Assembly: GCF_014831675.1 (NCBI RefSeq)
Contig: NZ_VJXY01000099.1
Coordinates: 1-10,528 of the forward strand
Direction of reading: 5' to 3'
Source: Komarekiella delphini-convector SJRDD-AB1
GTDB lineage: Bacteria > Cyanobacteriota > Cyanobacteriia > Cyanobacteriales > Nostocaceae
DNA length: 10,528 nt
In this document: positions 1-10,528 of the stretch, in pieces
Position numbering within the stretch: the stretch's first letter is position 1
Layout: every line of letters starts with the position of its first letter
Made by a program: the position numbers and the translations under genes
The notes under the pieces: model-generated
What the model was told of the DNA's origin: nothing
What the model saw: only the letters and a program-made list of their open reading frames with translations
The model's database searches: none

Positions 1-174
1 AGTATCTTCTTTGGCAAAGCTATCTCCAATAGACAACATCGGTTTAATAAACTATTACGTCCTACAGCCCGAAACTAAGGGAACATCTAGTACATAAGGT
101 AAGAAAACTTGTCTTTTGTGGGCTGCTGTGCTATCTCCATACTTGTATACATAGTTGCACAAGCTTCAGCATTA

Positions 175-205
175 TTGACCGACTACAAGCAAAATTACAT
201 AAATT
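175..205 (+). promoter_or_regulatory. Candidate sigma70-type promoter for the recombinase gene
   Basis: TTGACC lies at 175-180. After a 17-nt spacer comes CATAAA at 198-203, with TAAATT at 200-205 as an alternative -10. This would give a 5' UTR of roughly 100 nt containing the 255-299 inverted repeat. The call rests on hexamer resemblance only. Confidence 0.2.
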
Positions 206-254
206 AGTCAATTAAATAAAGTGAGTTGGAATGCCCATAACGAGGGAGAATAAA

Positions 255-299
255 AATCAGACACTATAAAACCAGACGAAACTGTGCTTGTGTCTGATT
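255..299. repeat. Perfect 10-bp inverted repeat (AATCAGACAC / GTGTCTGATT) with a 25-nt spacer, just upstream of the recombinase RBS
   Basis: Arms at 255-264 and 290-299 are exact reverse complements. GGGAG (305-309) and the ATG at 317 follow directly. It could be an operator, a 5' UTR hairpin or a recombinase-binding element. The function cannot be determined from the sequence. Confidence 0.5.
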
Positions 300-316
300 A
301 ATTAGGGAGTATAAGA

Positions 317-1246
317 ATGACGCTCTCTGTTGTCCACATAAACAAGTACCGCAAGGCGATCGCTTCTCTTGGGGCAGTGCAGGCAGAGGCGAAGTTGATT
401 GCGCTATGGCTGGATGGAAAAGCTGATTCTTCTGTCCAGGCATATCGGCGCTACATTAGGCGGTTCTTAGATTTCTTGGACAAGCCCCTCAAGAAAGTAA
501 CTTATGAAGATTTGGTGGAATACAGTACACAATTCCAGGGGCAAGCTGACAGTACCCGGCGAATTTACATTGCCGCAGTCAAAAGCCTGATTAGTTTCGC
601 TCACAAAATTGGATATATCCCTTTTAATGTTGGTATGGCAATAAAGCTGGGTGAACTGCCGGATGTCATTAATGAACGCTATTTAGACGAAGCAGACATC
701 AAATTAATGGTGCGGGCAGCACAAAAACATCTAGAACTTGCCACAACTCCTAAGCGACAATATACAGCTAAAAGAAATTTACTGATAATTAAGCTGCTGT
801 ACCAAGCAGGGCTTAGGGCCAACGAAATCTGTCAGTTAACTTGGGCAGACTTAACTCCCAGAAACGAAAGTGGTCAGGTGTACGTGCGAAAAGCTAAAGG
901 CAGCAAAAACCGTACCATCCTCATCAAGCCGAAGTTATGGACTGAACTAATGGAGTTTAAGTCAGATGCTAGTGCTACAGATGCAGTTTTCTCCAGTCAA
1001 AAGGGTGGACACTTGGAGCGCCAAAATTTACACCCGATAGTGAAAGCGATCGCAGCCGTTGCTGGACTAAGTGATAAAGTGTCAGCTCACTGGTTGCGTC
1101 ATGCCCACGGGTCACATGCCATTGAGAGAGGAACCAACCCTGTACTGGTAAAAGATACTTTGGGTCACTCCAACCTGGCAATTACTGACCGCTACCTCAA
1201 AGCTAGACCCAACGACAGCAGTGCTTTAAACTTAATGGATCTTTGA
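317..1246 (+). CDS. Tyrosine recombinase (phage-integrase / XerC-XerD-like family)
   Basis: The 309-aa ORF has an ATG preceded by GGGAG 7 nt upstream. The N-terminal part resembles a SAM-like core-binding domain (YRRYIRRFLDFL...TYEDLVEY...RRIYIAAVKSLISFA). The catalytic signature is complete: R167 (AGLRANE), H258-x-x-R261 (HWLRH), H284 (LGHSNLAIT) and Y293 (DRYL). Confidence 0.92.
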   Translation: MTLSVVHINKYRKAIASLGAVQAEAKLIALWLDGKADSSVQAYRRYIRRFLDFLDKPLKKVTYEDLVEYSTQFQGQADSTRRIYIAAVKSLISFAHKIGYIPFNVGMAIKLGELPDVINERYLDEADIKLMVRAAQKHLELATTPKRQYTAKRNLLIIKLLYQAGLRANEICQLTWADLTPRNESGQVYVRKAKGSKNRTILIKPKLWTELMEFKSDASATDAVFSSQKGGHLERQNLHPIVKAIAAVAGLSDKVSAHWLRHAHGSHAIERGTNPVLVKDTLGHSNLAITDRYLKARPNDSSALNLMDL

Positions 1247-1476
1247 CATTTACGCAGTTTGCTCTGCGGAAATCTACCAATTTCTGACCATTCACCACTC
1301 GAATAGCCAAATACTGCCGCAGCAAAACTCTCGACTTGCCCCCAGTTGCACGTGTGAACAGCAACTTGCGGGCCGACAATCAGCACTCAGCGCGATCGCT
1401 CTTTGTTATAAAGTGGAGCATATAAGGAGAGTACAACAGATACAGCCAAGCCAAATTGTAACTAAAAACTGAGCAA

Positions 1477-1746
1477 TTGAAGACCCAAGCCGACCACACG
1501 GAGAACATCAAAAATCTAGCGACCAGTTGCAATCAGCTAGGGATAGCCTTGAGCGCATTAAATCTAACGTCGCAGCAACAGCTAGAGCAATTGACTCACT
1601 TAACCAAACTCTCAGCCAATTTGAGCAATGTTTCCCCACAGCAACCAGAGACATTGAGCCAACCGTTGCAAGAACAATTGAACGAGATTCAGGCGAAGAT
1701 TTCTCTATTGAACCAAAAAGACGTGGAATCGGTCGTTAAAGGTTAG
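1477..1746 (+). CDS. Hypothetical Q/L/S-rich helical protein (TTG start); the reading frame is uncertain
   Basis: This 89-codon frame has no ATG. TTG at 1477 is the first possible start and there is no clear SD. An overlapping frame (1527-1739, also TTG-initiated) is equally open. The frame ends at TAG 1744-1746 but continues in frame for a further 68 sense codons (see findings). Confidence 0.3.
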   Translation: MKTQADHTENIKNLATSCNQLGIALSALNLTSQQQLEQLTHLTKLSANLSNVSPQQPETLSQPLQEQLNEIQAKISLLNQKDVESVVKG

Positions 1747-1815
1747 GGTAGAGCTTTTATTATCTGGCTTGTCTCTCCGATCTCATTTTTTATTCTGTTT
1801 TGGTTTTATTCACAC

Positions 1816-1953
1816 ATGACCCCAATCCCTACTCCTATTGAAACTACCGAGTCTCTACAGAAAATTTTGCAGAATACTGATTGGAGTAATGCCAAGCTTC
1901 AACGGGTTGAGAAAAAGTTGGGGACAGATCCTAATCAGAGACGGCGGCGGTAA
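1816..1953 (+). CDS. Possible 45-aa basic-tailed small protein, or the distal part of an amber-interrupted gene
   Basis: ATG at 1816 opens MTPIPTPIETTESLQKILQNTDWSNAKLQRVEKKLGTDPNQRRRR, ending at TAA 1951-1953. It is below the ORF-track cutoff and lacks a convincing SD. It shares its frame with 1477-1746. Confidence 0.2.
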   Translation: MTPIPTPIETTESLQKILQNTDWSNAKLQRVEKKLGTDPNQRRRR

Positions 1954-2107
1954 AAAAATGATGTTGAAAACGTGATTTAAAACAACTGTGTCTGCATTAC
2001 ACGTAATGGAGATTTGGTGTAATCAAAAAATTATGTGAATTTACGGAATCTCTTAGAGAAACCATGTATATTCAGTAAAATATGCTGCTCAAGAAGGTAG
2101 ATAGTAC

Positions 2108-2530
2108 ATGGAGCCACTAACAGCGGGTGCGATCGCTTTTACAACATGGGTGGTGGGTAAACTGATTGACTGGTCAACAGACAAAACTTTTGATATAGCT
2201 TCGGAACGGCTGATGCAACTGATAAAGCAGAAATCGCCAGACACAGCCAAAACCTTAACGGCAGCAGCAGGACGTGCAGCTTTAGTGCCTGATGAGAGAG
2301 AAGATATTGGGGAAGCTGTCTTGGTGGAAGAAGTGAAAAAGGCCGCAGCTAAAGACCCGGAAATTAAAGCAGCAGTACAAGCATTAGGAAATGATGTAAA
2401 TCAAACTGTAAAGGAGAATACTGAAGTTGAAAAGCGTTTGACAACTGTGATTGAAAATTGGCAAGGCATTAACATCAAAGGCGGAAAGCCAACTATCAGC
2501 AACAATACCTTCAATTTTGGTAACAAATGA
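2108..2530 (+). CDS. Small helical protein with a hydrophobic N-terminal helix and a C-terminal N/Q/G-rich motif; candidate Bell-like membrane-targeting executioner
   Basis: The 140-aa ORF has GAAGG about 11 nt upstream of the ATG. The N-terminus is MEPLTAGAIAFTTWVVGKLIDW, followed by a charged Ala/Lys/Glu-rich helical body. The C-terminal peptide ENWQGINIKGGKPTISNNTFNF recurs in the next gene. The stop overlaps the next start (ATGA at 2527-2530). Confidence 0.85.
   Translation: MEPLTAGAIAFTTWVVGKLIDWSTDKTFDIASERLMQLIKQKSPDTAKTLTAAAGRAALVPDEREDIGEAVLVEEVKKAAAKDPEIKAAVQALGNDVNQTVKENTEVEKRLTTVIENWQGINIKGGKPTISNNTFNFGNK
2453..2518 (+). other. Copy 1 of the shared 22-aa motif (residues 116-137 of the 140-aa protein); candidate amyloid signalling or adaptor motif
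   Basis: ENWQGINIKGGKPTISNNTFNF, ending 3 residues before the stop codon. Confidence 0.7.
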
Positions 2531-5500
2531 CTAATGAAAACTGGCAAGGTATCAATATAAAAGGCGGAAATCCGATTATTAAGGATAATAATATTATCTT
2601 TGAGTCGCCTGAAGAAAATCCCCCAAATAATATTTTATTTCAAGGTTCTGCCAACTTTGTAGGGCGAGAGCTAGAACTGAGGATAGTAAGTGAAAAGTTG
2701 CACAAATCAAGTGTAGTAGCAATATCTGCTATGTCAGGTATGGGAGGAGTGGGCAAAACGGAATTAGCAACACAGTATGCACGAAGATATGAAGCAGATT
2801 ATTCAGGAGGCATTTGTTGGTTAAGTGCAAGAGAATTAAATCTAGCAGCACAAGTTGTGCAGTTTGCTAGTGAGCAAATGAAATTAGAAGTACCGCAGCA
2901 GAATGTGAACGGAGAGGCGCTAAGTCTGAGTGAACAGGTAACTTGGTGTTGGCGAAACTGGCGACCGCAACAAGGGTTAGTGTTGGTAGTTCTAGACGAT
3001 GTTACAGAATTAGAAAGTTGTCGGGAGTTTTTGCCGAGTAGTAACCGTTTTCGTGTACTGATCACAACGCGGCGACGAAATTTAGACTCGAATATTTATG
3101 AGATACCTCTAGATGTGCTGTCAGCACCAGAAGCTTTGCAGTTGTTAACAGCCTTAGTGGGTGAAACAAAAGTCAAGCGTGAATTAGAGACAGCCAAAGA
3201 GTTATGTGAATGGTTGGGATATTTGCCGTTAGGGTTGGAATTGGTAGGGGGGTATATAGCAAAAAAGCCTCCCAATTGGACTATAGCAAAAATGTTGCAG
3301 AGGCTAAAAGAGCAGCAATTAAAAGATGAAGCGCTTAATGTAGAGCAGCAAAAATTACAAAAAACTTTAAGTACAGCACAGCGAGGGGTATTAGCAGCAT
3401 TTGAGTTAAGTTGGCTGGAGCTGGAACATAGAACTCAAAATGTTGCAATATTGTTGAGTTTATTTGCTCCAGGGATTTTTATATGGGAGTGGGTAGAATC
3501 TACAGTTGGTTCACTCAAATGGGTGGCGAGTGATGCTGATACAGCAAATGAGCAATTATATGAACGTAATTTGATTCAATGGGTAGAAGATACGGATGGA
3601 AACTATAAAATCAAAATACATCCTTTAATTCGGGAGTTTTTAAAAGTCAAGCTAGCACTCTCAGAACAAGCTTATGATTTGAAGTCGGCTTTTGTGAAAA
3701 CATTTGTAGAAATTGCCCAAACAATCTCTCCTCCACTTACTCAAGAGAACATTAAATTATTAAAAGATGCAATACCGCATTTGGCGGAGGTAGCACAAAA
3801 TCTAACTGATGTACTTAGTAATGAAAATTTAAGCCAGCCCTTTGTTGGCTTAGGTAGATTTTATCAGGAACAGGGGTTGTATACTTTAGCAGAACCTTGG
3901 TATGAAGGATGCATATCAGCATTAAAAGCCCGTTTTGGGGAAGAACATCCTGAGGTTGCAGCCACTTGTAACAACTTGGCTCTACTCTACAGAAGTCAAG
4001 GAAAATACATGGAAGCAGAACCTCTGTACCTCAAAGCATTATCCTTAGAGCAAGAGCTGCTGGGAGAGGAGCATCTTGAGGTTGCAACCACTTATAACAA
4101 CTTGGCAGTACTCTACAAAAGACAAGGTAGGTACACAGAAGCAGAACCTCTCTATCTCAAAGCATTATCCTTAAGGCAAAAGCTGCTGGGGGAGGAGCAT
4201 CCTGAGGTCGCAAGCAATTGCAATAACTTGGGTATGCTCTACGAAAGCCAAGGTAGGTACACAGAAGCAGAACCGCTCTTGCTCAAAGCATTAGAACTTT
4301 GGCAAAGACTGTCGGGGGAGGAGCATCCTCATGTCGCCTTCGCTTACAGCAACTTGGGTATACTCTACGAAAGACAAGGTAGGTACACAGAAGCAGAACC
4401 GCTCTTGCTCAAAGCATTATCCTTAAGGCAAAGGCTGCTGGGGGATGAGCATCCTGATGTTGCAACCAGTTACAACAACTTGGCAGTACTCTACAAAAGC
4501 CAGGGTAGGTATACAGAAGCAGAATCTCTGTACCTCAAAGCATTAGAACTTGAGCAAAGGCTGCTGGGGGAGGAGCATCCTGATGTCGCAACCGCTTACC
4601 ATAACTTGGCTTTCCTCTACTATAGCCAAGGACGGTACATAGAAACAGAACCTCTGTACCTCAAAGTATTAGAACTAAGGCAAAGGCTGCTGGGCGAGGA
4701 GCATCCTGATGTCGCAACCACTTACAAAAGCTTGGCTGAACTCTACGACAACTGGGCTTTAGTCTACGATAACCAAGGACGGTATGCAGAAGCAGAACTC
4801 CTGTACCTCAAACTATTATCCTTAACGCAAAGGTTGCTGGGGGAGGAACATCGTGATGTCCTAACCAGTTACAACCACTTGGCAGGAATCTATTATAGCC
4901 AAGGACGGTACATAGAAGCAGAACCTCTGTTGCTCAAAGCATTATCTTTAAGGCAAATGCTGCTGGGGGAGGAGCATTCTGATGTTGCAATTAGTTACAA
5001 CAATTTGGCTCAACTCTACTATAGCCAAGGTAAGTACACAGAAGCAGAGCCTATGTACCTCAAAGCATTATCCCTAATGCAAAGGCCGCTGCTAGAGGAG
5101 CATTCTTGGATCGCAATCAGTTACAACAACTTAGCAGTAATCTACGAAAGACAAGGTAGATACACAGAGGCAGAACCGATATACCTTAAAGCATTATCCC
5201 TAATGCAAATGCTGCTGGGGGAGGAGCATCCTGATGTCGCAACCAGTTACAACAACTTGGCAGGAATCTACTATAGCCAAGGTAGGTATACAGAAGCAGA
5301 ACCGGTCTTGCTCAAAGCATTAGAACTAGAGCAAAGGCTGCTGGGAGAGGAGCATCGTGCAGTCGCAACCACTTACCACAACTTGGCTCAACTTTACGAA
5401 AAACAAGGAAGGTATACAGAAGCGGAACCTCTGTGCCTCAAAGCATTATCTCTAATGCAAAGACTGCTAGGGGAGAAGCATTATGAGGTCGCAAACAGTT

Positions 5501-5796
5501 ACAACATCTTGGGTCAACTCTACAATAGCCAAGGAAGGTACATAGAGGCAGAACCGCTATTTCTCAAAGCATTAGAACTAAGGCAAAGGCTGCTGGGGGA
5601 GGAGCATCCTGATGTTGCAACTAGTTACAACAGCTTGGCTCAACTCTACAATAGCCAAGGAAAGTACACACAAGCAGAACCGCTTTTGCTCAAAGCCTTG
5701 AGAATTGTTGAACAAAGATTAGGAGTTGCACATCATAACACAATTACTATTCGTAAAAATCTGGAATGGGTGCGAGATGAAATTTCAAAAAGTTAA
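2527..5796 (+). CDS. STAND NTPase with NB-ARC nucleotide-binding module and C-terminal TPR array (bacterial NLR-like protein)
   Basis: The ORF is 1089 aa. Motifs seen: FVGRELEL pre-P-loop motif, Walker A GMGGVGKTELA (aa 71-81), Walker B LVLVVLDDV (aa 151-159), RVLITTR (aa 176-182), GLPL-like GYLPLGL (aa 221-227) and MHD-like IHPLIRE (aa 364-370). About 15 kinesin-light-chain-type 42-aa TPR units follow from aa 449. Confidence 0.95.
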   Translation: MTNENWQGINIKGGNPIIKDNNIIFESPEENPPNNILFQGSANFVGRELELRIVSEKLHKSSVVAISAMSGMGGVGKTELATQYARRYEADYSGGICWLSARELNLAAQVVQFASEQMKLEVPQQNVNGEALSLSEQVTWCWRNWRPQQGLVLVVLDDVTELESCREFLPSSNRFRVLITTRRRNLDSNIYEIPLDVLSAPEALQLLTALVGETKVKRELETAKELCEWLGYLPLGLELVGGYIAKKPPNWTIAKMLQRLKEQQLKDEALNVEQQKLQKTLSTAQRGVLAAFELSWLELEHRTQNVAILLSLFAPGIFIWEWVESTVGSLKWVASDADTANEQLYERNLIQWVEDTDGNYKIKIHPLIREFLKVKLALSEQAYDLKSAFVKTFVEIAQTISPPLTQENIKLLKDAIPHLAEVAQNLTDVLSNENLSQPFVGLGRFYQEQGLYTLAEPWYEGCISALKARFGEEHPEVAATCNNLALLYRSQGKYMEAEPLYLKALSLEQELLGEEHLEVATTYNNLAVLYKRQGRYTEAEPLYLKALSLRQKLLGEEHPEVASNCNNLGMLYESQGRYTEAEPLLLKALELWQRLSGEEHPHVAFAYSNLGILYERQGRYTEAEPLLLKALSLRQRLLGDEHPDVATSYNNLAVLYKSQGRYTEAESLYLKALELEQRLLGEEHPDVATAYHNLAFLYYSQGRYIETEPLYLKVLELRQRLLGEEHPDVATTYKSLAELYDNWALVYDNQGRYAEAELLYLKLLSLTQRLLGEEHRDVLTSYNHLAGIYYSQGRYIEAEPLLLKALSLRQMLLGEEHSDVAISYNNLAQLYYSQGKYTEAEPMYLKALSLMQRPLLEEHSWIAISYNNLAVIYERQGRYTEAEPIYLKALSLMQMLLGEEHPDVATSYNNLAGIYYSQGRYTEAEPVLLKALELEQRLLGEEHRAVATTYHNLAQLYEKQGRYTEAEPLCLKALSLMQRLLGEKHYEVANSYNILGQLYNSQGRYIEAEPLFLKALELRQRLLGEEHPDVATSYNSLAQLYNSQGKYTQAEPLLLKALRIVEQRLGVAHHNTITIRKNLEWVRDEISKS
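2536..2601 (+). other. Copy 2 of the shared 22-aa motif (residues 4-25 of the NB-ARC/TPR protein)
   Basis: ENWQGINIKGGNPIIKDNNIIF is identical to copy 1 at 15 of 22 positions. The first 11 residues are identical despite 5 synonymous nucleotide differences. Confidence 0.7.
2653..3636 (+). other. NB-ARC nucleotide-binding/oligomerisation module of the NTPase
   Basis: It spans FVGRE through the MHD-like IHPLIRE. The order P-loop, hhhhDD, TTR, GLPL, MHD is canonical for the NB-ARC (AP-ATPase) clade. Confidence 0.85.
3871..5700 (+). repeat. Tandem array of 126-bp (42-codon) TPR-coding units: 14 full units plus a degenerate 15th
   Basis: Consensus unit: QGRYTEAEPLYLKALSL.Q.LLGEEHPDVA..YNNLA.LY... 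Phase is strict at 126 nt (for example 4127, 4253, 4379, 4505), except for unit 7, which is 147 nt. A 45-nt perfect match links 4249-4293 with 4375-4419. Confidence 0.95.
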
Positions 5797-5994
5797 TGTA
5801 GCGGAAAGTTGCGATCACTACTGAAGAGAAAAGTAATCACAAAGTCACACCTTGGGTGATCGCAGGGAATTAAGCCAGTGCCGAGCAACAGCGATGCGAG
5901 GCTGCGGCTCTCACTCATGCTTTGAGAGTTCAGCTTTCACGCTCAAAGTAAGAAAGAGTATAATCTGCATTGCTTAATTATTTGCCGCGAACGC

Positions 5995-6106
5995 TTACAA
6001 TTCTGGCCCCGCCTGCCACAGTAAATCCTCACTCCATTGCTTGAGCAGGGCTTTGATAATATAGCTTCAAGTTCAGCGATCGCTCTAATTAACCGTCGCC
6101 ATCATC
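5995..6106 (-). pseudogene. Remnant of a replication-gene paralogue: two non-contiguous pieces of the 934-aa ORF fused together
   Basis: Minus-strand 6095-6051 reads RLIRAIAELEAILSK, against RLIRAIASLEAILSE in the large ORF (8377-8436). This includes a 21-nt exact match, AGCGATCGCTCTAATTAACCG, at 6075-6095 and 8402-8422. After a frame shift, 6051-5995 reads ALLKQWSEDLLWQAGPEL-stop, against ILKRWTSDLRWQAVLEL (7649-7705). Confidence 0.5.
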
Positions 6107-7550
6107 TCTCACCTCCATGCTGCCAAAACCGCAACTCGGACTTGAAATACCTCTCAGTTTTCTTAGACTCATTGCGCCAGTGATCCCAAGCCACTATCAC
6201 CTCCTCTCCGAAATCCTCTATGACTTCCCCCCTCTCCATATATAAAGTGCGGTAAGGGTCAGCGTGGGCAACAATGGAACCAACTTCAATCAATTCGCAA
6301 TTAGAAGAACCAGATGCGGCAAGACTTTCGTGAGAAACCGTCTGTTCTGCAATTTTGGAGGATTCAGCTTTCTCTAGGGCCGCGATTAGCTCTGTCTGTT
6401 GTGGTGTCAACTCTGCTCTAATGTCCTGCTTGATTACCTCGTACTCTTGCGCCACTGCCCAATAGTCCTGCCAGCTACACCCAGGGTTTAACAACACCCG
6501 TCTAATATCGCTAACCGCCTGTGGCAGCGGTTGCAATTGTTCCGTCCTTATGGCAATCGCCTCTGGTGTAGGACTACTGCCCAAGATTATCGCCGCAGCT
6601 TCCATCGCTTTGGTGTTGTTCATCGCGGTGGCGATCTGCTTCAGTGCCATGCCCATGAGCCGCAGACATTCTTGGGCATTGTCTAGTGGCGGCGAAACTG
6701 CTAGCTCACGCAGATCAATAGTTTCTAAGAGCGCTTGTTTGACCTGCTTGTTTAAAGCTTTGGTTGCCTGCTGGGTCATGGTATTCCCCCACTGCTGGGC
6801 AGGTCGTGATTCTACAGCGTGTTCCAATTCCTGGATACGTTGCTGTAGCTGCTGGTTCTCAATCTCCAACTGCCGGAGCGATTCCATCTCATCCAAACGT
6901 TGCTGCAACTGAATATTTTGCTCTTTCTGTTGCTGGAGTAATTTCTGGTATGCCTCCAGTTGCTCCTTAATTTGTGCTTCGGCTCTGGCAGTAGCCTCTG
7001 CTTGCAAGCCAATCCTCAATTCCTGTTCCAGTCGCTCTAACTCAAGCTTGTGCTGCTCTTTGATTGCTGCGACGTTTTCAATATTTTCAGGAACCAATGG
7101 TTCCTGAACTTTTTTGCGTAGTGGCAAAGGAACCACTTTTTTGGCAGCAGCGGCAAAGTCCGATTCGCTGGGGGAGGGATTTTCCTCAAGTGCAAGAGCT
7201 ACGGCAGCCTTAAGTTTTTCTGGCTCTTTGGCTAACCGAGCTAGTGAACGGGCTTGGCGCTCATTTTTGATGTGTTCGCCAAATTCCCCGGCAGCCTCAA
7301 TAACCTTATGCGCTCCTAGCAGCTGATTGATCCGCCGATACCCACCCCAAGCAGATAGTTCATGCTGGCAGTATTCTTCAAAGTTGTTATATCCAGCATC
7401 CTTAAATACCTGTTGCGATCGCATAAGGAGAATTTCGTCTACCGCCTGGGACTCGAATCGGTCGATGGCGGTGAAGGTTTCTTTGATATTGCTGTTGATC
7501 ACATCGTAGTCGAGTGCTGTTGTTGGTTCTTCTTTATTTAGTGTCAGCAT
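6102..7550 (-). CDS. Hypothetical protein with putative N-terminal HTH/DNA-binding region, central Q/E/L coiled coil and a small C-terminal beta-rich domain; coupled to the replication gene
   Basis: The ORF is 482 aa. Its ATG lies 2 nt after the TAA of the upstream ORF (minus strand reads ...tcg TAA ct ATG...). FKDAGYNNFEEYCQHELSAWGGYRRINQLLGAHKVIE resembles the HTH region common in ParB/KorB-like plasmid and phage proteins. Residues about 165-250 are heptad-like (QLQQRLDEMESLRQLEIENQQLQQRIQELE). Confidence 0.85.
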   Translation of the reverse strand: MLTLNKEEPTTALDYDVINSNIKETFTAIDRFESQAVDEILLMRSQQVFKDAGYNNFEEYCQHELSAWGGYRRINQLLGAHKVIEAAGEFGEHIKNERQARSLARLAKEPEKLKAAVALALEENPSPSESDFAAAAKKVVPLPLRKKVQEPLVPENIENVAAIKEQHKLELERLEQELRIGLQAEATARAEAQIKEQLEAYQKLLQQQKEQNIQLQQRLDEMESLRQLEIENQQLQQRIQELEHAVESRPAQQWGNTMTQQATKALNKQVKQALLETIDLRELAVSPPLDNAQECLRLMGMALKQIATAMNNTKAMEAAAIILGSSPTPEAIAIRTEQLQPLPQAVSDIRRVLLNPGCSWQDYWAVAQEYEVIKQDIRAELTPQQTELIAALEKAESSKIAEQTVSHESLAASGSSNCELIEVGSIVAHADPYRTLYMERGEVIEDFGEEVIVAWDHWRNESKKTERYFKSELRFWQHGGER

Positions 7551-7552
7551 AG

Positions 7553-10528
7553 TTACGAACCCTCCATCGGCAACACCTCTTCTGTTAGCAAGGCATAAAA
7601 CTCCGGTACTACCTGCTCCAAAGAGCGCAGTTCATTCGCCGCTAGAGCCTCCAATTCCAGCACCGCCTGCCAGCGCAAATCAGATGTCCAGCGTTTAAGG
7701 ATGCCTTTAATCGCATCTACCCCTTTAGCAATGCCATCTCTAAGCGTTTGCACACAGTCGAGTAGAGGAGTCGATTCATTGAATTGCGTGGTATCCACCC
7801 CTCCCGATAGGGGGTTCCCTATAGCAATATAGGGGGGGGTGGATACGGGAGAGCTATTCGGCTCAATCCCGTACTCAGTCTGGATTTTAGCTTGATAATA
7901 GAAGGAATTGGCGCTCAATTCCCGTTTGTTTTGGCGATGAGCCATTACTTGTTTTGCAAATTCCAATTCCTCCACAGCAAGCGAATAAATTTTCACCTGC
8001 TCACCGCGTGGCCCCTGCTTGCGGCAAGCTAACTTGAGTCCCAGCTGCTCAAGCATTGTGGCCAGCAACCAAACTGGTTCACAATTACTGGGGATTGTGA
8101 AACCAAGAATTGCTTTAATGTGAGCAGCACAATCAATTGCGATCGCCCTCATATTTAGTAAGTCGCAGTCAGTGGACGTAATTTCGCTTCCGACTACCAA
8201 TTGTTTAAGAATGTGATGCAAACCCAAGTTAAATCTCGCCAACCAATGAGCGGAATAATTACCCCAGTCGAAGCTAAAAGGTAAATTATCCCGTTGGCTG
8301 CGGTCTTTTTGGGTGACAATTGTTGGTGGTGCGGGGTATTGCTGTCCAGTCTTGGGGTCAACAATCGATTCACTTGGTTCAGATAATATGGCCTCAAGAG
8401 AAGCGATCGCTCTAATTAACCGACCGCCGTCATCTAATTCAACCAGTTCGGGCGTAACGGACATCCCGTAGGAATCAAATATGCGAAACTTTTCACATTC
8501 AAAAACTTCCTGGGGTGTCAGGTAATCTTTGCTCTGACGGGCGCGGTATTCACTCAAGGTAATATTGTTAGCCTTGGCAACAGCCGAATAATGGGCAATG
8601 TCCAAAGCCGATGCCGCAACTTTTAGAGATTCTAGAGATTCATGATCATCATCACTGCCCACTGATACTATGGTATTGCCCATCTCCGTAAGCAGCGATC
8701 GCAGATCATCCCGGAGATTATTGAGAGAATAGTGACGGTTAGCTTGAATTTGACAGTAAGCTTCTAGCGCCCAATCTTTCTCTGCTCCCCGTGCTCCTGT
8801 TTTGCGGTCAATTCGCAACAGAAAAGCAGTCATTTCGTTGGTTTGGAGTAATCGCTGTTTGATTTTTGTGGCGTTGGTATCTTTGTAACCAAAGGGAGGG
8901 CGAGGAGCCACCCAAACGTGAAACGGAACTTTGGGGCGATAACGGTAGAGCTGTTGAGCGCATTCGGTTGCCGTTTGGGAAACGCCGTGAAAAACACCAA
9001 ACACCAAATCAAAATGATATTGGGAGATATCTACACCAGTTCCCAAGCTGGGGGAGGTGAGTAAAGCATCGAGGTTTTTGACGGCGTTGGTAATATCTTT
9101 GATGAAAGCAATGTTCTCCTCGCTGCCGGAGTTGTCTGAATGCACAGACCAAATCCGTAATTTTGTGAGTGTAGGAGACGGGGAAGAGTTAGGAGATTCT
9201 TCGCACTTGGAGGAGAGTGATTTTTCAAGTTTCTTGATGAAACGCTTGGAGTCGCTGACCACCATGATTTTCTGTCCTGCCATTAGTGCCGCCGAGATTT
9301 GCGCGACTAGAGCGCTGGAATTATCCCCCTCGTACCAGTGAATAGTGCGTGAGCCATTTCTCCACTCGTTTTTGATGATGTACGGGATTTCCCCTGATGG
9401 ACGCATTGCTCGAAAGAAGTCCACCGTCAGGTCATCCATGTGTGCATCGGCGATGACCACCAATGGCGCATTGTATACTATATATTCCAGTACTTCCAGT
9501 ATTGCGGCGCGATGTGATTTGCAAGTATTACTGTGTAGTAGGTGAGTGAGGTATTGGCAGGCCTCATCAATAAATATGCAGCCGTAGGTGAGAGATTGGG
9601 TATTTAGCTTGTGCAAGCTGTCAATAGTAATGCTCAGAGCTGTGGCTTTGGCTAACCCCACGTAACCAAGTTCTGAATACATGGCAGTCCCCAAGCGTTC
9701 GGCAAGATTTTTCAGGAGATTTACGCGATGACCATTGTTAAGAAATCTTGCTGAAGGATTTTGGTCACGCCACCAGCGCATTAGTTCAGTTTTGCCAGTG
9801 CCCATGTCACTCCATAAAATCACAAGTCCTGCAAACGGAAAGCGGAAAGTAGAGCGACTCTGAGATTTGTATGAATCAACTTCAAGAGAATCTTTTGACT
9901 CCTTGTTGAATTTTTCTTCGATAACAGAAGGAGTAAACAATTTTTCCTTTTCAATCTCATAAAGCTCTGGTACGGATGAACATTCTTCAAGCTCTTTAAT
10001 GCACAAGGCTTGGGAGAGATATTTGACGTTGACTGTCACATCTGGTTTGTACTTACTAAGTCCCCACTTCTTAGCCCGATACGAGCGCTGGTAATCTTTA
10101 AGCGATTTGGCATCATCAATGATCGCGCTCAGTAAGACATTCGCATCTTTATTTCGCGCTACCACAAAATCATCAACGCCTTTCTCTGGCCCCGGCAGTA
10201 ATGCCACTTCGCATTCCCCACCAGCTGCTTCGATTGCTCTACCAGTACGAACCGTTGCCTGAAAAACTGACCAGCGGGTATTTGACCTGGTTTCGTAGTC
10301 AAATAATATAATGAACTTGCGTCCCGCCTGAGCCAATGGTACTAAGTCAGGATGCAACCGTTCATCAAAATCCAGCTTGCCAACTCGCCCGTTCCAAATG
10401 CCGGGGAGTGCTAGAGCTACAAACCCCAGACTTAGTAAGCAAGCGGCCTTCTTCTCACCTTCGCAAAGTATTATTGGTATCTCCGAGTGTGCGATGACCC
10501 ACTCCCAGAAGATCAGCGGATTGAGTCG
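7553..10528 (-). CDS. Large plasmid-type replication protein (N-terminal Toprim/DUF3854-like domain plus P-loop helicase-like NTPase), 5' partial; possibly CyRepA1-like
   Basis: The codon labelled M at 10357 in the ORF track is an internal TTG. The frame stays open for all 57 codons out to position 10528: RLNPLIFWEWVIAHSEIPIILCEGEKKAACLLSLGFVALALPGIWNG. This is a Toprim-type E-G-x-x-K-A signature, followed by FIILFDYE and KGVDDF acidic motifs. Walker A is WSDMGTGKTE (GTGKT at 9788-9802), Walker B is IFIDEA (DE at 9563-9568), and there is a helicase-like TSPSLGTGVDI. Confidence 0.85.
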   Translation of the reverse strand, partial: RLNPLIFWEWVIAHSEIPIILCEGEKKAACLLSLGFVALALPGIWNGRVGKLDFDERLHPDLVPLAQAGRKFIILFDYETRSNTRWSVFQATVRTGRAIEAAGGECEVALLPGPEKGVDDFVVARNKDANVLLSAIIDDAKSLKDYQRSYRAKKWGLSKYKPDVTVNVKYLSQALCIKELEECSSVPELYEIEKEKLFTPSVIEEKFNKESKDSLEVDSYKSQSRSTFRFPFAGLVILWSDMGTGKTELMRWWRDQNPSARFLNNGHRVNLLKNLAERLGTAMYSELGYVGLAKATALSITIDSLHKLNTQSLTYGCIFIDEACQYLTHLLHSNTCKSHRAAILEVLEYIVYNAPLVVIADAHMDDLTVDFFRAMRPSGEIPYIIKNEWRNGSRTIHWYEGDNSSALVAQISAALMAGQKIMVVSDSKRFIKKLEKSLSSKCEESPNSSPSPTLTKLRIWSVHSDNSGSEENIAFIKDITNAVKNLDALLTSPSLGTGVDISQYHFDLVFGVFHGVSQTATECAQQLYRYRPKVPFHVWVAPRPPFGYKDTNATKIKQRLLQTNEMTAFLLRIDRKTGARGAEKDWALEAYCQIQANRHYSLNNLRDDLRSLLTEMGNTIVSVGSDDDHESLESLKVAASALDIAHYSAVAKANNITLSEYRARQSKDYLTPQEVFECEKFRIFDSYGMSVTPELVELDDGGRLIRAIASLEAILSEPSESIVDPKTGQQYPAPPTIVTQKDRSQRDNLPFSFDWGNYSAHWLARFNLGLHHILKQLVVGSEITSTDCDLLNMRAIAIDCAAHIKAILGFTIPSNCEPVWLLATMLEQLGLKLACRKQGPRGEQVKIYSLAVEELEFAKQVMAHRQNKRELSANSFYYQAKIQTEYGIEPNSSPVSTPPYIAIGNPLSGGVDTTQFNESTPLLDCVQTLRDGIAKGVDAIKGILKRWTSDLRWQAVLELEALAANELRSLEQVVPEFYALLTEEVLPMEGS
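7791..7846. repeat. Nested palindrome with a G8/C8 homopolymer inside the replication gene
   Basis: Outer 11-bp perfect arms are GTATCCACCCC (7791-7801) and GGGGTGGATAC (7836-7846). Inside, CCCTATA (7817-7823) can pair with TATAGGG (7828-7834) across a GCAA loop. Alternatively CCCTAT pairs with ATAGGG (7807-7812) across GGTT. The G8 run lies at 7832-7839. Confidence 0.6.

Follow-up and report, generated by a model that had tools for sequence, protein, structure and literature searches.

Ten families of amyloid signalling motifs, BASS1-10, have been described that are common to the C-termini of small bacterial proteins with the helical Bell domain and to the N-termini of NB-ARC or NACHT proteins encoded next to them (Dyrka et al. 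2020, bioRxiv 10.1101/2020.01.06.895854). The genes of these pairs are mostly collinear, lie within 5 kb of each other and often overlap (42% of the collinear pairs), and the expected partner is a NOD-like receptor (NLR) combining an NB-ARC or NACHT domain with TPR or WD repeats. The hosts are filamentous Actinobacteria and Cyanobacteria, with BASS7 being specific to the cyanobacteria (Dyrka et al. 2020). Here we describe a pair of overlapping genes in a stretch of 10,528 nucleotides from the cyanobacterium Komarekiella delphini-convector SJRDD-AB1 (contig NZ_VJXY01000099.1, positions 1 to 10,528; hereafter the window), whose products share a 22-residue, N/G/I-rich motif, located at the C-terminus of a small protein and at the N-terminus of a large NB-ARC/TPR protein. 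By its motif, its profile scores, its published orthologous pair and the start of its Bell protein, all of which agree, this pair is a member of BASS7. All elements of such a pair were published in 2020, from the motif and the effector domain to the partner and the mechanism proposed, in a study that reportedly appeared later in J Mol Biol, and the window locus is a further example and not a new system.

Several characterized systems provide the framework in which such a pair can be interpreted. The BASS1 and BASS3 motifs form fibrils and behave as prions, and their NLR-side versions convert the Bell-side versions (Dyrka et al. 2020). The Bab/Agp pair of Escherichia coli ECOR25 is built like the window pair: its small helical effector is related to Bell proteins, starts with a helix of the MEP type and ends in a motif of about 20 residues, a copy of which lies at the N-terminus of the neighbouring sensor protein (Ibarlosa et al. 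2024, bioRxiv 10.1101/2024.11.07.622273). It mediates antiphage abortive infection, which is abolished by β-breaker mutations in either motif and also by mutation of helix 1 of Bab, and a membrane-targeting cell-death activity has been demonstrated for Bab only (Ibarlosa et al. 2024). Amyloid control of abortive infection has been demonstrated for Bab/Agp. Bab/Agp differs from the window pair in its motif, which is BASS11, in its shorter effector domain ('Babybell', about 80 residues), in its unicellular host and in the location of its locus in a prophage defence island.

The fungal NWD2/HET-S pair and other fungal pairs (HRAM, sigma, PP) share with the window pair the adjacency of the two genes and the N-terminal position of the motif on the NLR; the helical effector beside it forms pores and has the motif at its C-terminus, and the signal is passed on by amyloid templating. 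Unlike the window pair they are eukaryotic and have an effector domain of the HeLo or Hell type, and effectors of the HET-s type carry two pseudo-repeats of the motif, whereas the small window protein has one significant BASS7 match, a second match being far from significance (independent E-value 460, 0 bits). The RHIM of RIPK1/RIPK3 and the BASS3 motif are comparable as short signalling motifs for heterotypic assembly in cell-death pathways and are amyloid-forming. Their core is (I/V)-Q-(I/V)-G, unlike the W-Q-G-I-N-I-K-G-G (within ENWQGINIKGG) of the window motif, and the Pfam RHIM model matches neither of the two window proteins.

The two genes of the window pair are open reading frames (ORFs) on the forward strand, at 2108..2530 and 2527..5796, which overlap by four nucleotides, with the ATGA at 2527..2530 (+) providing both the stop codon of the first and the start codon of the second. 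The downstream gene is probably co-translated with the overlapping upstream gene. A scan for promoters and terminators returned nothing above chance. The first ORF encodes a protein of 140 residues, a predicted cell-death effector, ending in ...TTVIENWQGINIKGGKPTISNNTFNFGNK. It comprises a Bell helical domain (residues 1-115; 2108..2452, +), supported by an AlphaFold2 model and a homologue alignment and including the N-terminal hydrophobic helix MEPLTAGAIAFTTWVV, followed by the first copy of the motif, ENWQGINIKGGKPTISNNTFNF (residues 116-137; 2453..2518, +). The second ORF encodes a protein of 1089 residues, beginning with MTNENWQGINIKGGNPIIKDNNIIFESPEE..., in which the second copy of the motif, ENWQGINIKGGNPIIKDNNIIF (residues 4-25; 2536..2601, +), is followed by an NB-ARC nucleotide-binding oligomerisation domain (residues 51-282; 2677..3372, +) and by an array of about 14 tandem TPR units of 126 nucleotides, or 42 residues (3937..5704, +), which is the predicted ligand-sensing part. 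Pfam detects no domain over either copy of the motif.

A preliminary description of this DNA had singled out the two copies as peptides kept identical in their first half while the underlying DNA diverged, and its coordinates, peptides and codon differences all proved exact when the sequence was re-checked. The copies agree at 47/66 nucleotides and 15/22 residues. All 11 residues of the N-terminal core are identical, and the five differences between the two 11-codon cores (aat/aac, ggc/ggt, att/atc, aac/aat and atc/ata) are without exception synonymous; in the second half P13, I15, N18 and F22 are common to both copies. The number of exact 11-mer matches expected between proteins of these two lengths is about 6e-8. 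By the Nei-Gojobori method the core has 6.0 synonymous and 27.0 non-synonymous sites, of which five and none, respectively, have changed, and the probability of all five core changes being synonymous under neutrality is about 2e-4. Related loci show the same pattern, as in a set of eight Bell-side copies from Nostoc, where the variable sites at codon positions 1, 2 and 3 number 1, 1 and 10. Purifying selection thus acts on both peptide copies, as the preliminary description had argued.

Its further statement that the likeness does not reflect a recent DNA duplication holds for the window, whose copies have diverged synonymously, but does not extend to all relatives. In the two closest ones, L003 and L004, the Bell-side and NLR-side copies have the same DNA sequence throughout the 33-nucleotide core; each window copy differs from the L003-type core at four sites, and the two window copies differ from each other at five. 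The identical cores indicate that gene conversion between the copies, which lie 83 nucleotides apart, probably happens occasionally in this family.

The comparison of both copies with the BASS families, proposed in the preliminary description as a way of telling a known family from a new one, points clearly to the former. A hidden Markov model built solely from the ten published BASS7 sequences of Table S2 of Dyrka et al. scores the Bell-side copy at 49.5 bits and the NLR-side copy at 37.9 bits, and both values exceed those of many NLR-side copies at clearly orthologous loci. The bass_07 rows of that table include NENWQGINFKNANPTISGNTFNF / NENWQGINFKDSNPIIQGNNFNF, PHIVNENWQGINFKNANPTISGNTFNF / NENWQGINFKDSNPIIQGNNFNF from Calothrix elsteri, and TTVIENWQGINIKGGKPIIKNNTLNF / SENWQGINIKGGEPTIKDNT from Nostoc sp. 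232 (OYE01691.1/OYE01692.1) (Dyrka et al. 2020). The Nostoc sp. 232 locus is L003 of our set, in which the exact published peptides are found at the listed residues (112-137 on the Bell side), and whose Bell protein is 85% identical to that of the window. Another homologue of the 140-residue protein, P0050 (E = 6e-24), comes from the strain of the published AKG20974.1 and has an identical motif at identical residue positions. The placement of the motif, its signature, the collinearity and overlap of the genes, the NLR partner and the cyanobacterial host are likewise those of the BASS7 pairs, which have the same ENWQGINIKGG...NTFNF motif, the same Bell effector and NB-ARC/TPR partner, and the same gene order, gene overlap and Nostocales host, with OYE01691.1/OYE01692.1 as the orthologue. 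We see no essential difference from the published pairs. The Komarekiella locus is absent from Table S2, it adjoins genes for a CyRepA1 protein and a tyrosine recombinase, and its NLR-side tail has diverged further from the Bell-side tail than is the case in the closest relatives. The earlier interpretation of the copies as a matching pair of amyloid-type peptides is supported, with the profile placing the motif in an amyloid signalling family. The original observation was correct and its interpretation essentially so, but both are already explained by a published family.

The 140-residue protein is 100% identical to FNW02_35960, a 'hypothetical protein' of Komarekiella sp. 'clone 1'. Komarekiella is filamentous, and all those of the 95 homologues that carry an organism name are cyanobacterial, mostly from Nostocales. 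Although searches of Pfam, NCBIfam, PADLOC and PHROG assign the protein to no family, its features are those of a Bell protein. Bell domains are helical, extend over about 100 residues and begin with a hydrophobic helix that has an acidic residue at position 2 or 3; the proteins that contain them typically span 120-140 residues (Dyrka et al. 2020), and an N-terminal 'MEPIS' motif is common to the Bell, Hell and Bab domains (Ibarlosa et al. 2024). The window protein starts with MEPLTAGAIAF... and has a hydrophobic first helix; among 37 aligned homologues M1 and P3 never vary, residue 2 is E in 35 and D in the other two, and a hydrophobic stretch comes next. An AlphaFold2 model computed from 37 sequences has six helices over residues 3-118 (mean pLDDT 70, pTM 0.65), with the tail (residues 120-140) being unstructured, at pLDDT <50 and devoid of predicted secondary structure. 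The helical domain, the MEP start, the acidic residue 2 and the disordered tail together agree with the published definition.

Several Bell homologues (P0008, P0010, P0011, P0013, P0015, P0020, P0026, P0057, P0071, P0076 and P0087) have wholly different C-terminal tails, for example ...NNFEKVVNLAQGIEPSINIQNQTVNL and ...ETIGINTQNISGGEVYQTFGQGGISITKQY, even though they are up to 78% identical over the helical domain. The occurrence of unlike tails on such close homologues suggests an exchange of motifs on a Bell scaffold that itself stayed conserved. One strain, Nostocaceae cyanobacterium CENA369, encodes both a BASS7 protein (P0006) and one with another tail (P0020), under the locus tags I8752_35960 and I8752_35925; judging from these tags and from the equal length of the contigs, both apparently lie on the same 34.7-kb contig. 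The NNFEKVVNLAQGIEPSINIQNQTVNL tail is loosely like published BASS5 rows (...GNIQNQ), and the other-tail motif has no exact match in Table S2 of Dyrka et al. 2020.

The 1089-residue protein is, by its domain composition, a bacterial NLR-type STAND NTPase. Pfam recovers NB-ARC with E = 4.7e-18 and TPR_12 with E = 1.2e-212 in 14 stretches, and the Walker A (GMGGVGKT, from residue 71) and Walker B (LVVLDD, from residue 153) motifs are both intact. Tandem Repeats Finder reports a period of 126, 13.9 copies and 70% matches for the TPR array, and at the protein level thirteen units have a mean pairwise identity of 69% (maximum 83%). Beyond the motif, orthologues extend for 739, 808 and 841 residues compared with 1086 in the window, a spread that fits the reshuffling of repeats discussed for fungal and bacterial NLRs. 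At three loci (L016, L018 and L048) the NLR-side BASS7 copy is present but its ORF breaks off 24-47 residues after the motif begins, probably as a result of a frameshift or of gene decay. The NCBIfam equivalog 'FxSxx-COOH system TPR protein' gives the window NLR 415.9 bits against a curated cut-off of 300, and automatic annotation could therefore misname it. We reject this identity, as the architecture shared is that of NB-ARC/TPR proteins in general and the score is inflated by the 14 repeats; the window contains no radical-SAM gene, no peptide ending in FxSxx and no other part of an FxSxx system.

To what extent the two copies evolve together, a point on which the preliminary description had proposed a test, can be judged from the other loci. 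A scan with one genome per species recovered 55 loci, of which 26, including the window, have both copies; with two more, from Lyngbya and from an Oculatellaceae genome, there are 28 both-copy loci and 27 distinct pairs, distributed over Nostoc, Calothrix, Rivularia, Tolypothrix, Lyngbya, Oculatellaceae and others. At position 18 of the motif, 13 of the 25 distinct pairs from the scan are N/N, 10 are P/P and 2 are discordant; in one of the two discordant pairs the NLR is truncated to 36 residues. The two added pairs are concordant (P/P and N/N), bringing agreement to 25/27. Crocosphaera (L048) contributes one of the two discordant pairs. Positions 12, 13 and 16 also match between partners above the expectation from column frequencies. 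Over the tail as a whole, true pairs are identical at 5.5/11 positions compared with 4.25 +/- 0.27 for shuffled partners, with none of 10,000 shuffles reaching the observed value. A neighbour-joining tree built from the Bell domains has N and P dispersed among several clades, the two partners always having the state in common. The residues shared by partners use different codons (e.g. AAT CCC ACT versus AAC CCA ACA in L005), so recent gene conversion does not explain the agreement. The two copies co-vary at the same position, which is what would be expected if they stacked in parallel and in register, like residue on like.

The spread of the motif was further delimited by searching 1.84 billion representative proteins exhaustively with HMMER, using the 30-residue tail as the query, at a sensitivity that suffices for Bell-side copies only. 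It returned 10 proteins at E <= 0.001, of which 6 are short with a C-terminal motif and 4 are long. Among the short ones four were inspected, and the remaining two, P0022 and P0072, belong to the Bell homologues; the long ones match in 4-13 separate stretches each, and the two inspected are unrelated tandem repeats. A 40-residue query in a word-indexed search gave a single candidate. The possibility that the motif is a common low-complexity linker of unrelated proteins, under which the earlier interpretation would have failed, is at odds with so few matches and with the retention of the pair in 28 loci.

In light of these comparisons, the two peptides are most likely the two halves of a BASS7 amyloid-signalling pair, formed by a Bell effector and an NLR. 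The mechanism is inferred by analogy with fungal NWD2/HET-S and with Agp/Bab of E. coli, and this applies to the amyloid nature of BASS7 as much as to templating, the attack on the membrane and the kind of trigger. Binding of a ligand to the TPR array would cause the NB-ARC domains to oligomerise. The N-terminal BASS7 peptides clustered in this way would nucleate an in-register cross-β fold, and the nucleus would then impose this fold on the Bell tail by templating. The refolding of the tail might in turn free the N-terminal helix of the Bell domain for an attack on the membrane, leading to cell death in the form of abortive infection or regulated cell death.

A number of points weigh against this interpretation. 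In the literature examined, fibril and prion tests concern BASS1, BASS3 and BASS11 only, and BASS7 is not among them. The pair is not covered by any PADLOC model, and the window offers no pointer to the trigger. What Bell/NLR pairs do in multicellular bacteria has, according to Ibarlosa et al. (2024), yet to be established. The tails of the window copies match at only 4/11 positions, as against 6-8/11 in the closest relatives, and the efficiency of cross-seeding is therefore uncertain for this particular pair. The counts of co-variation given above ignore the phylogenetic kinship of the loci. The lack of tail structure in the AlphaFold model is expected for a monomer and is no positive evidence. 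A Foldseek search of the medium-confidence model against PDB gave a best E-value of 2.2 with TM <0.3, and a profile search of PDB sequences found nothing below E = 0.08, with no significant link to the four/five-helix bundles of Bab, HeLo or MLKL or to any other protein; Bell-type topologies are, for their part, described as varying widely (Ibarlosa et al. 2024).

A bolder version of the amyloid interpretation, which we put forward tentatively as a possible but doubtful extension, takes the co-variation to be a specificity code that keeps parallel BASS7 pairs within one genome from cross-seeding one another. The window pair, lying between the recombinase and CyRepA1 genes, might then be a mobile, self-contained cell-death cassette serving in abortive infection or plasmid-linked exclusion, and its diverged tail might constitute a private channel.

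Among the alternatives, the one that fares best, though we consider it unlikely, is a homotypic adaptor that is not an amyloid: the two copies would pair one-to-one or in a small oligomer, for example by β-strand augmentation or by folding when they bind, and so bring the Bell protein to the activated NLR in the absence of a self-propagating cross-β polymer. The preliminary description had raised this in the form of the effector-associated domains (EADs) catalogued for NTP-dependent conflict systems. EAD1-10 and bDLD indeed have the layout seen here, with one copy on the NTPase and another on the effector encoded by the adjacent gene, and with a closer resemblance between adjacent copies than between copies that are not adjacent (Kaur, Burroughs, Iyer and Aravind 2020, PMC7159879). 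A symmetric homotypic contact would equally give rise to same-position co-variation, and the literature examined holds no amyloid data for BASS7 itself. However, the EADs are small folded domains, alpha-helical or alpha+beta, in whose description amyloid is never mentioned (Kaur et al. 2020), whereas the unit in the window is an N/G/I-rich peptide of 22 residues that lies in an unstructured tail, is free of any Pfam domain in either copy, and is classed in a family defined together with motifs proven to form amyloids and prions. Thus the coupling logic of the EADs applies to the window pair, but membership in an EAD family does not.

A second and very unlikely alternative shifts the function of the copies to the level of DNA: as direct repeats 83 nucleotides apart they would be a substrate for deletions or duplications that fuse or split the two genes, and the likeness of the peptides would be a by-product of gene conversion. 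It draws on the identity of the 33-nucleotide cores in L003 and L004, on the reading frames, from which a deletion between the copies is inferred to yield an in-frame Bell-BASS7-NLR fusion, and on the collapsed, single-copy layout found in 23 Nostoc genomes. Against it, window copies that agree at 47/66 nucleotides and have changed at 5/6 synonymous core sites make a poor substrate for recombination and are the opposite of what conversion would leave behind. In the clade of L005-L008 and L020, moreover, changes at 4-6 synonymous sites and at no non-synonymous site separate the two cores, with Bell copies clustering with Bell copies and NLR copies with NLR copies. The copies there evolve as orthologues while the peptide remains fixed, and conservation therefore acts on the protein. 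The idea that the repeat has no function, being left over from a tandem duplication where the two genes meet, or that it is a low-complexity linker of a common kind, has nothing in its favour beyond the N/G-rich composition and can be set aside as highly implausible, being refuted by the substitution pattern (0/27 non-synonymous against 5/6 synonymous core sites changed) and by the phylogenetic spread of a pair kept in 28 loci over several cyanobacterial genera, with the tail search adding only ten matches among 1.84 billion proteins.

The single-copy loci mentioned above form a distinct group of 23 (L023, L024, L026-L029, L031-L037, L039-L047 and L049; e.g. L031, 6001-8268), each from a species-level Nostoc-type genome. 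These have one BASS7 copy, the Bell ORF ending in ...GNTFNF-TGA. Past the TGA the frame continues without an ATG through 24-28 codons rich in P, E and S into the NB-ARC/TPR ORF, the linker measuring 72, 75, 78 or 84 nucleotides and thus always a multiple of three. Tblastn alignments with the window NLR span the stop in these loci. Gene callers take an in-frame TTG as the start, with the last 7-8 linker codons coming after it, such that the NLR is annotated without the motif. The context of the stop is TGA-C in all 23 loci. UGA-C is said to have been identified by Poole et al. in 1995 as the weakest termination context in E. coli. The linker between the TGA and the next start shows no third-position excess, and the idea of read-through is therefore unsupported. 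The layout may represent a read-through fusion, an NLR that lost its motif, or the relic of a fusion gene that was split.

The surroundings of the pair point to a plasmid. Upstream lies a gene for a tyrosine recombinase (317-1246, +; Pfam Phage_integrase, E = 1.6e-29) and downstream one for a CyRepA1-family plasmid replication protein (7553-10357, -; NCBIfam, E = 2.7e-103), and megablast retrieves 40 plasmid records with both, the majority from Nostoc. In plasmid p057_G of Nostoc sp. C057 (L060) the recombinase and CyRepA1 genes are adjacent and convergent, 129 nucleotides apart, whereas in the window 6.3 kb separate them, with the Bell/NLR pair inside; the pair is therefore probably cargo inserted in a plasmid backbone. 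The location of the recombinase and replication genes at the two ends had suggested that the window might be a complete circular plasmid, which we reject as unsupported given the lack of a terminal overlap and the gene order of p057_G. Two further ORFs were noted: one of 482 residues directly downstream of the CyRepA1 gene (6102-7550, -), with no match in Pfam, NCBIfam, PADLOC or PHROGs, and one of 89 residues upstream of the Bell gene (1477-1746, +), for which L002 alone has a counterpart, 63% identical and likewise upstream of its Bell gene. PADLOC and PHROGs returned nothing informative on the window.

Taken together, the window adds one more instance, probably plasmid-borne, to the prokaryotic NLR/amyloid signalling pairs, a family that links regulated cell death in bacteria, fungi and animals. 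The main by-products of the analysis are the N/P co-variation at position 18 and the single-copy TGA-C layout in 23 Nostoc genomes. The practical value of the finding is modest; nevertheless, being compact and strongly conserved and showing a clean N/N or P/P co-variation at position 18, BASS7 is a convenient system for asking whether the specificity of amyloid templating is encoded position by position.

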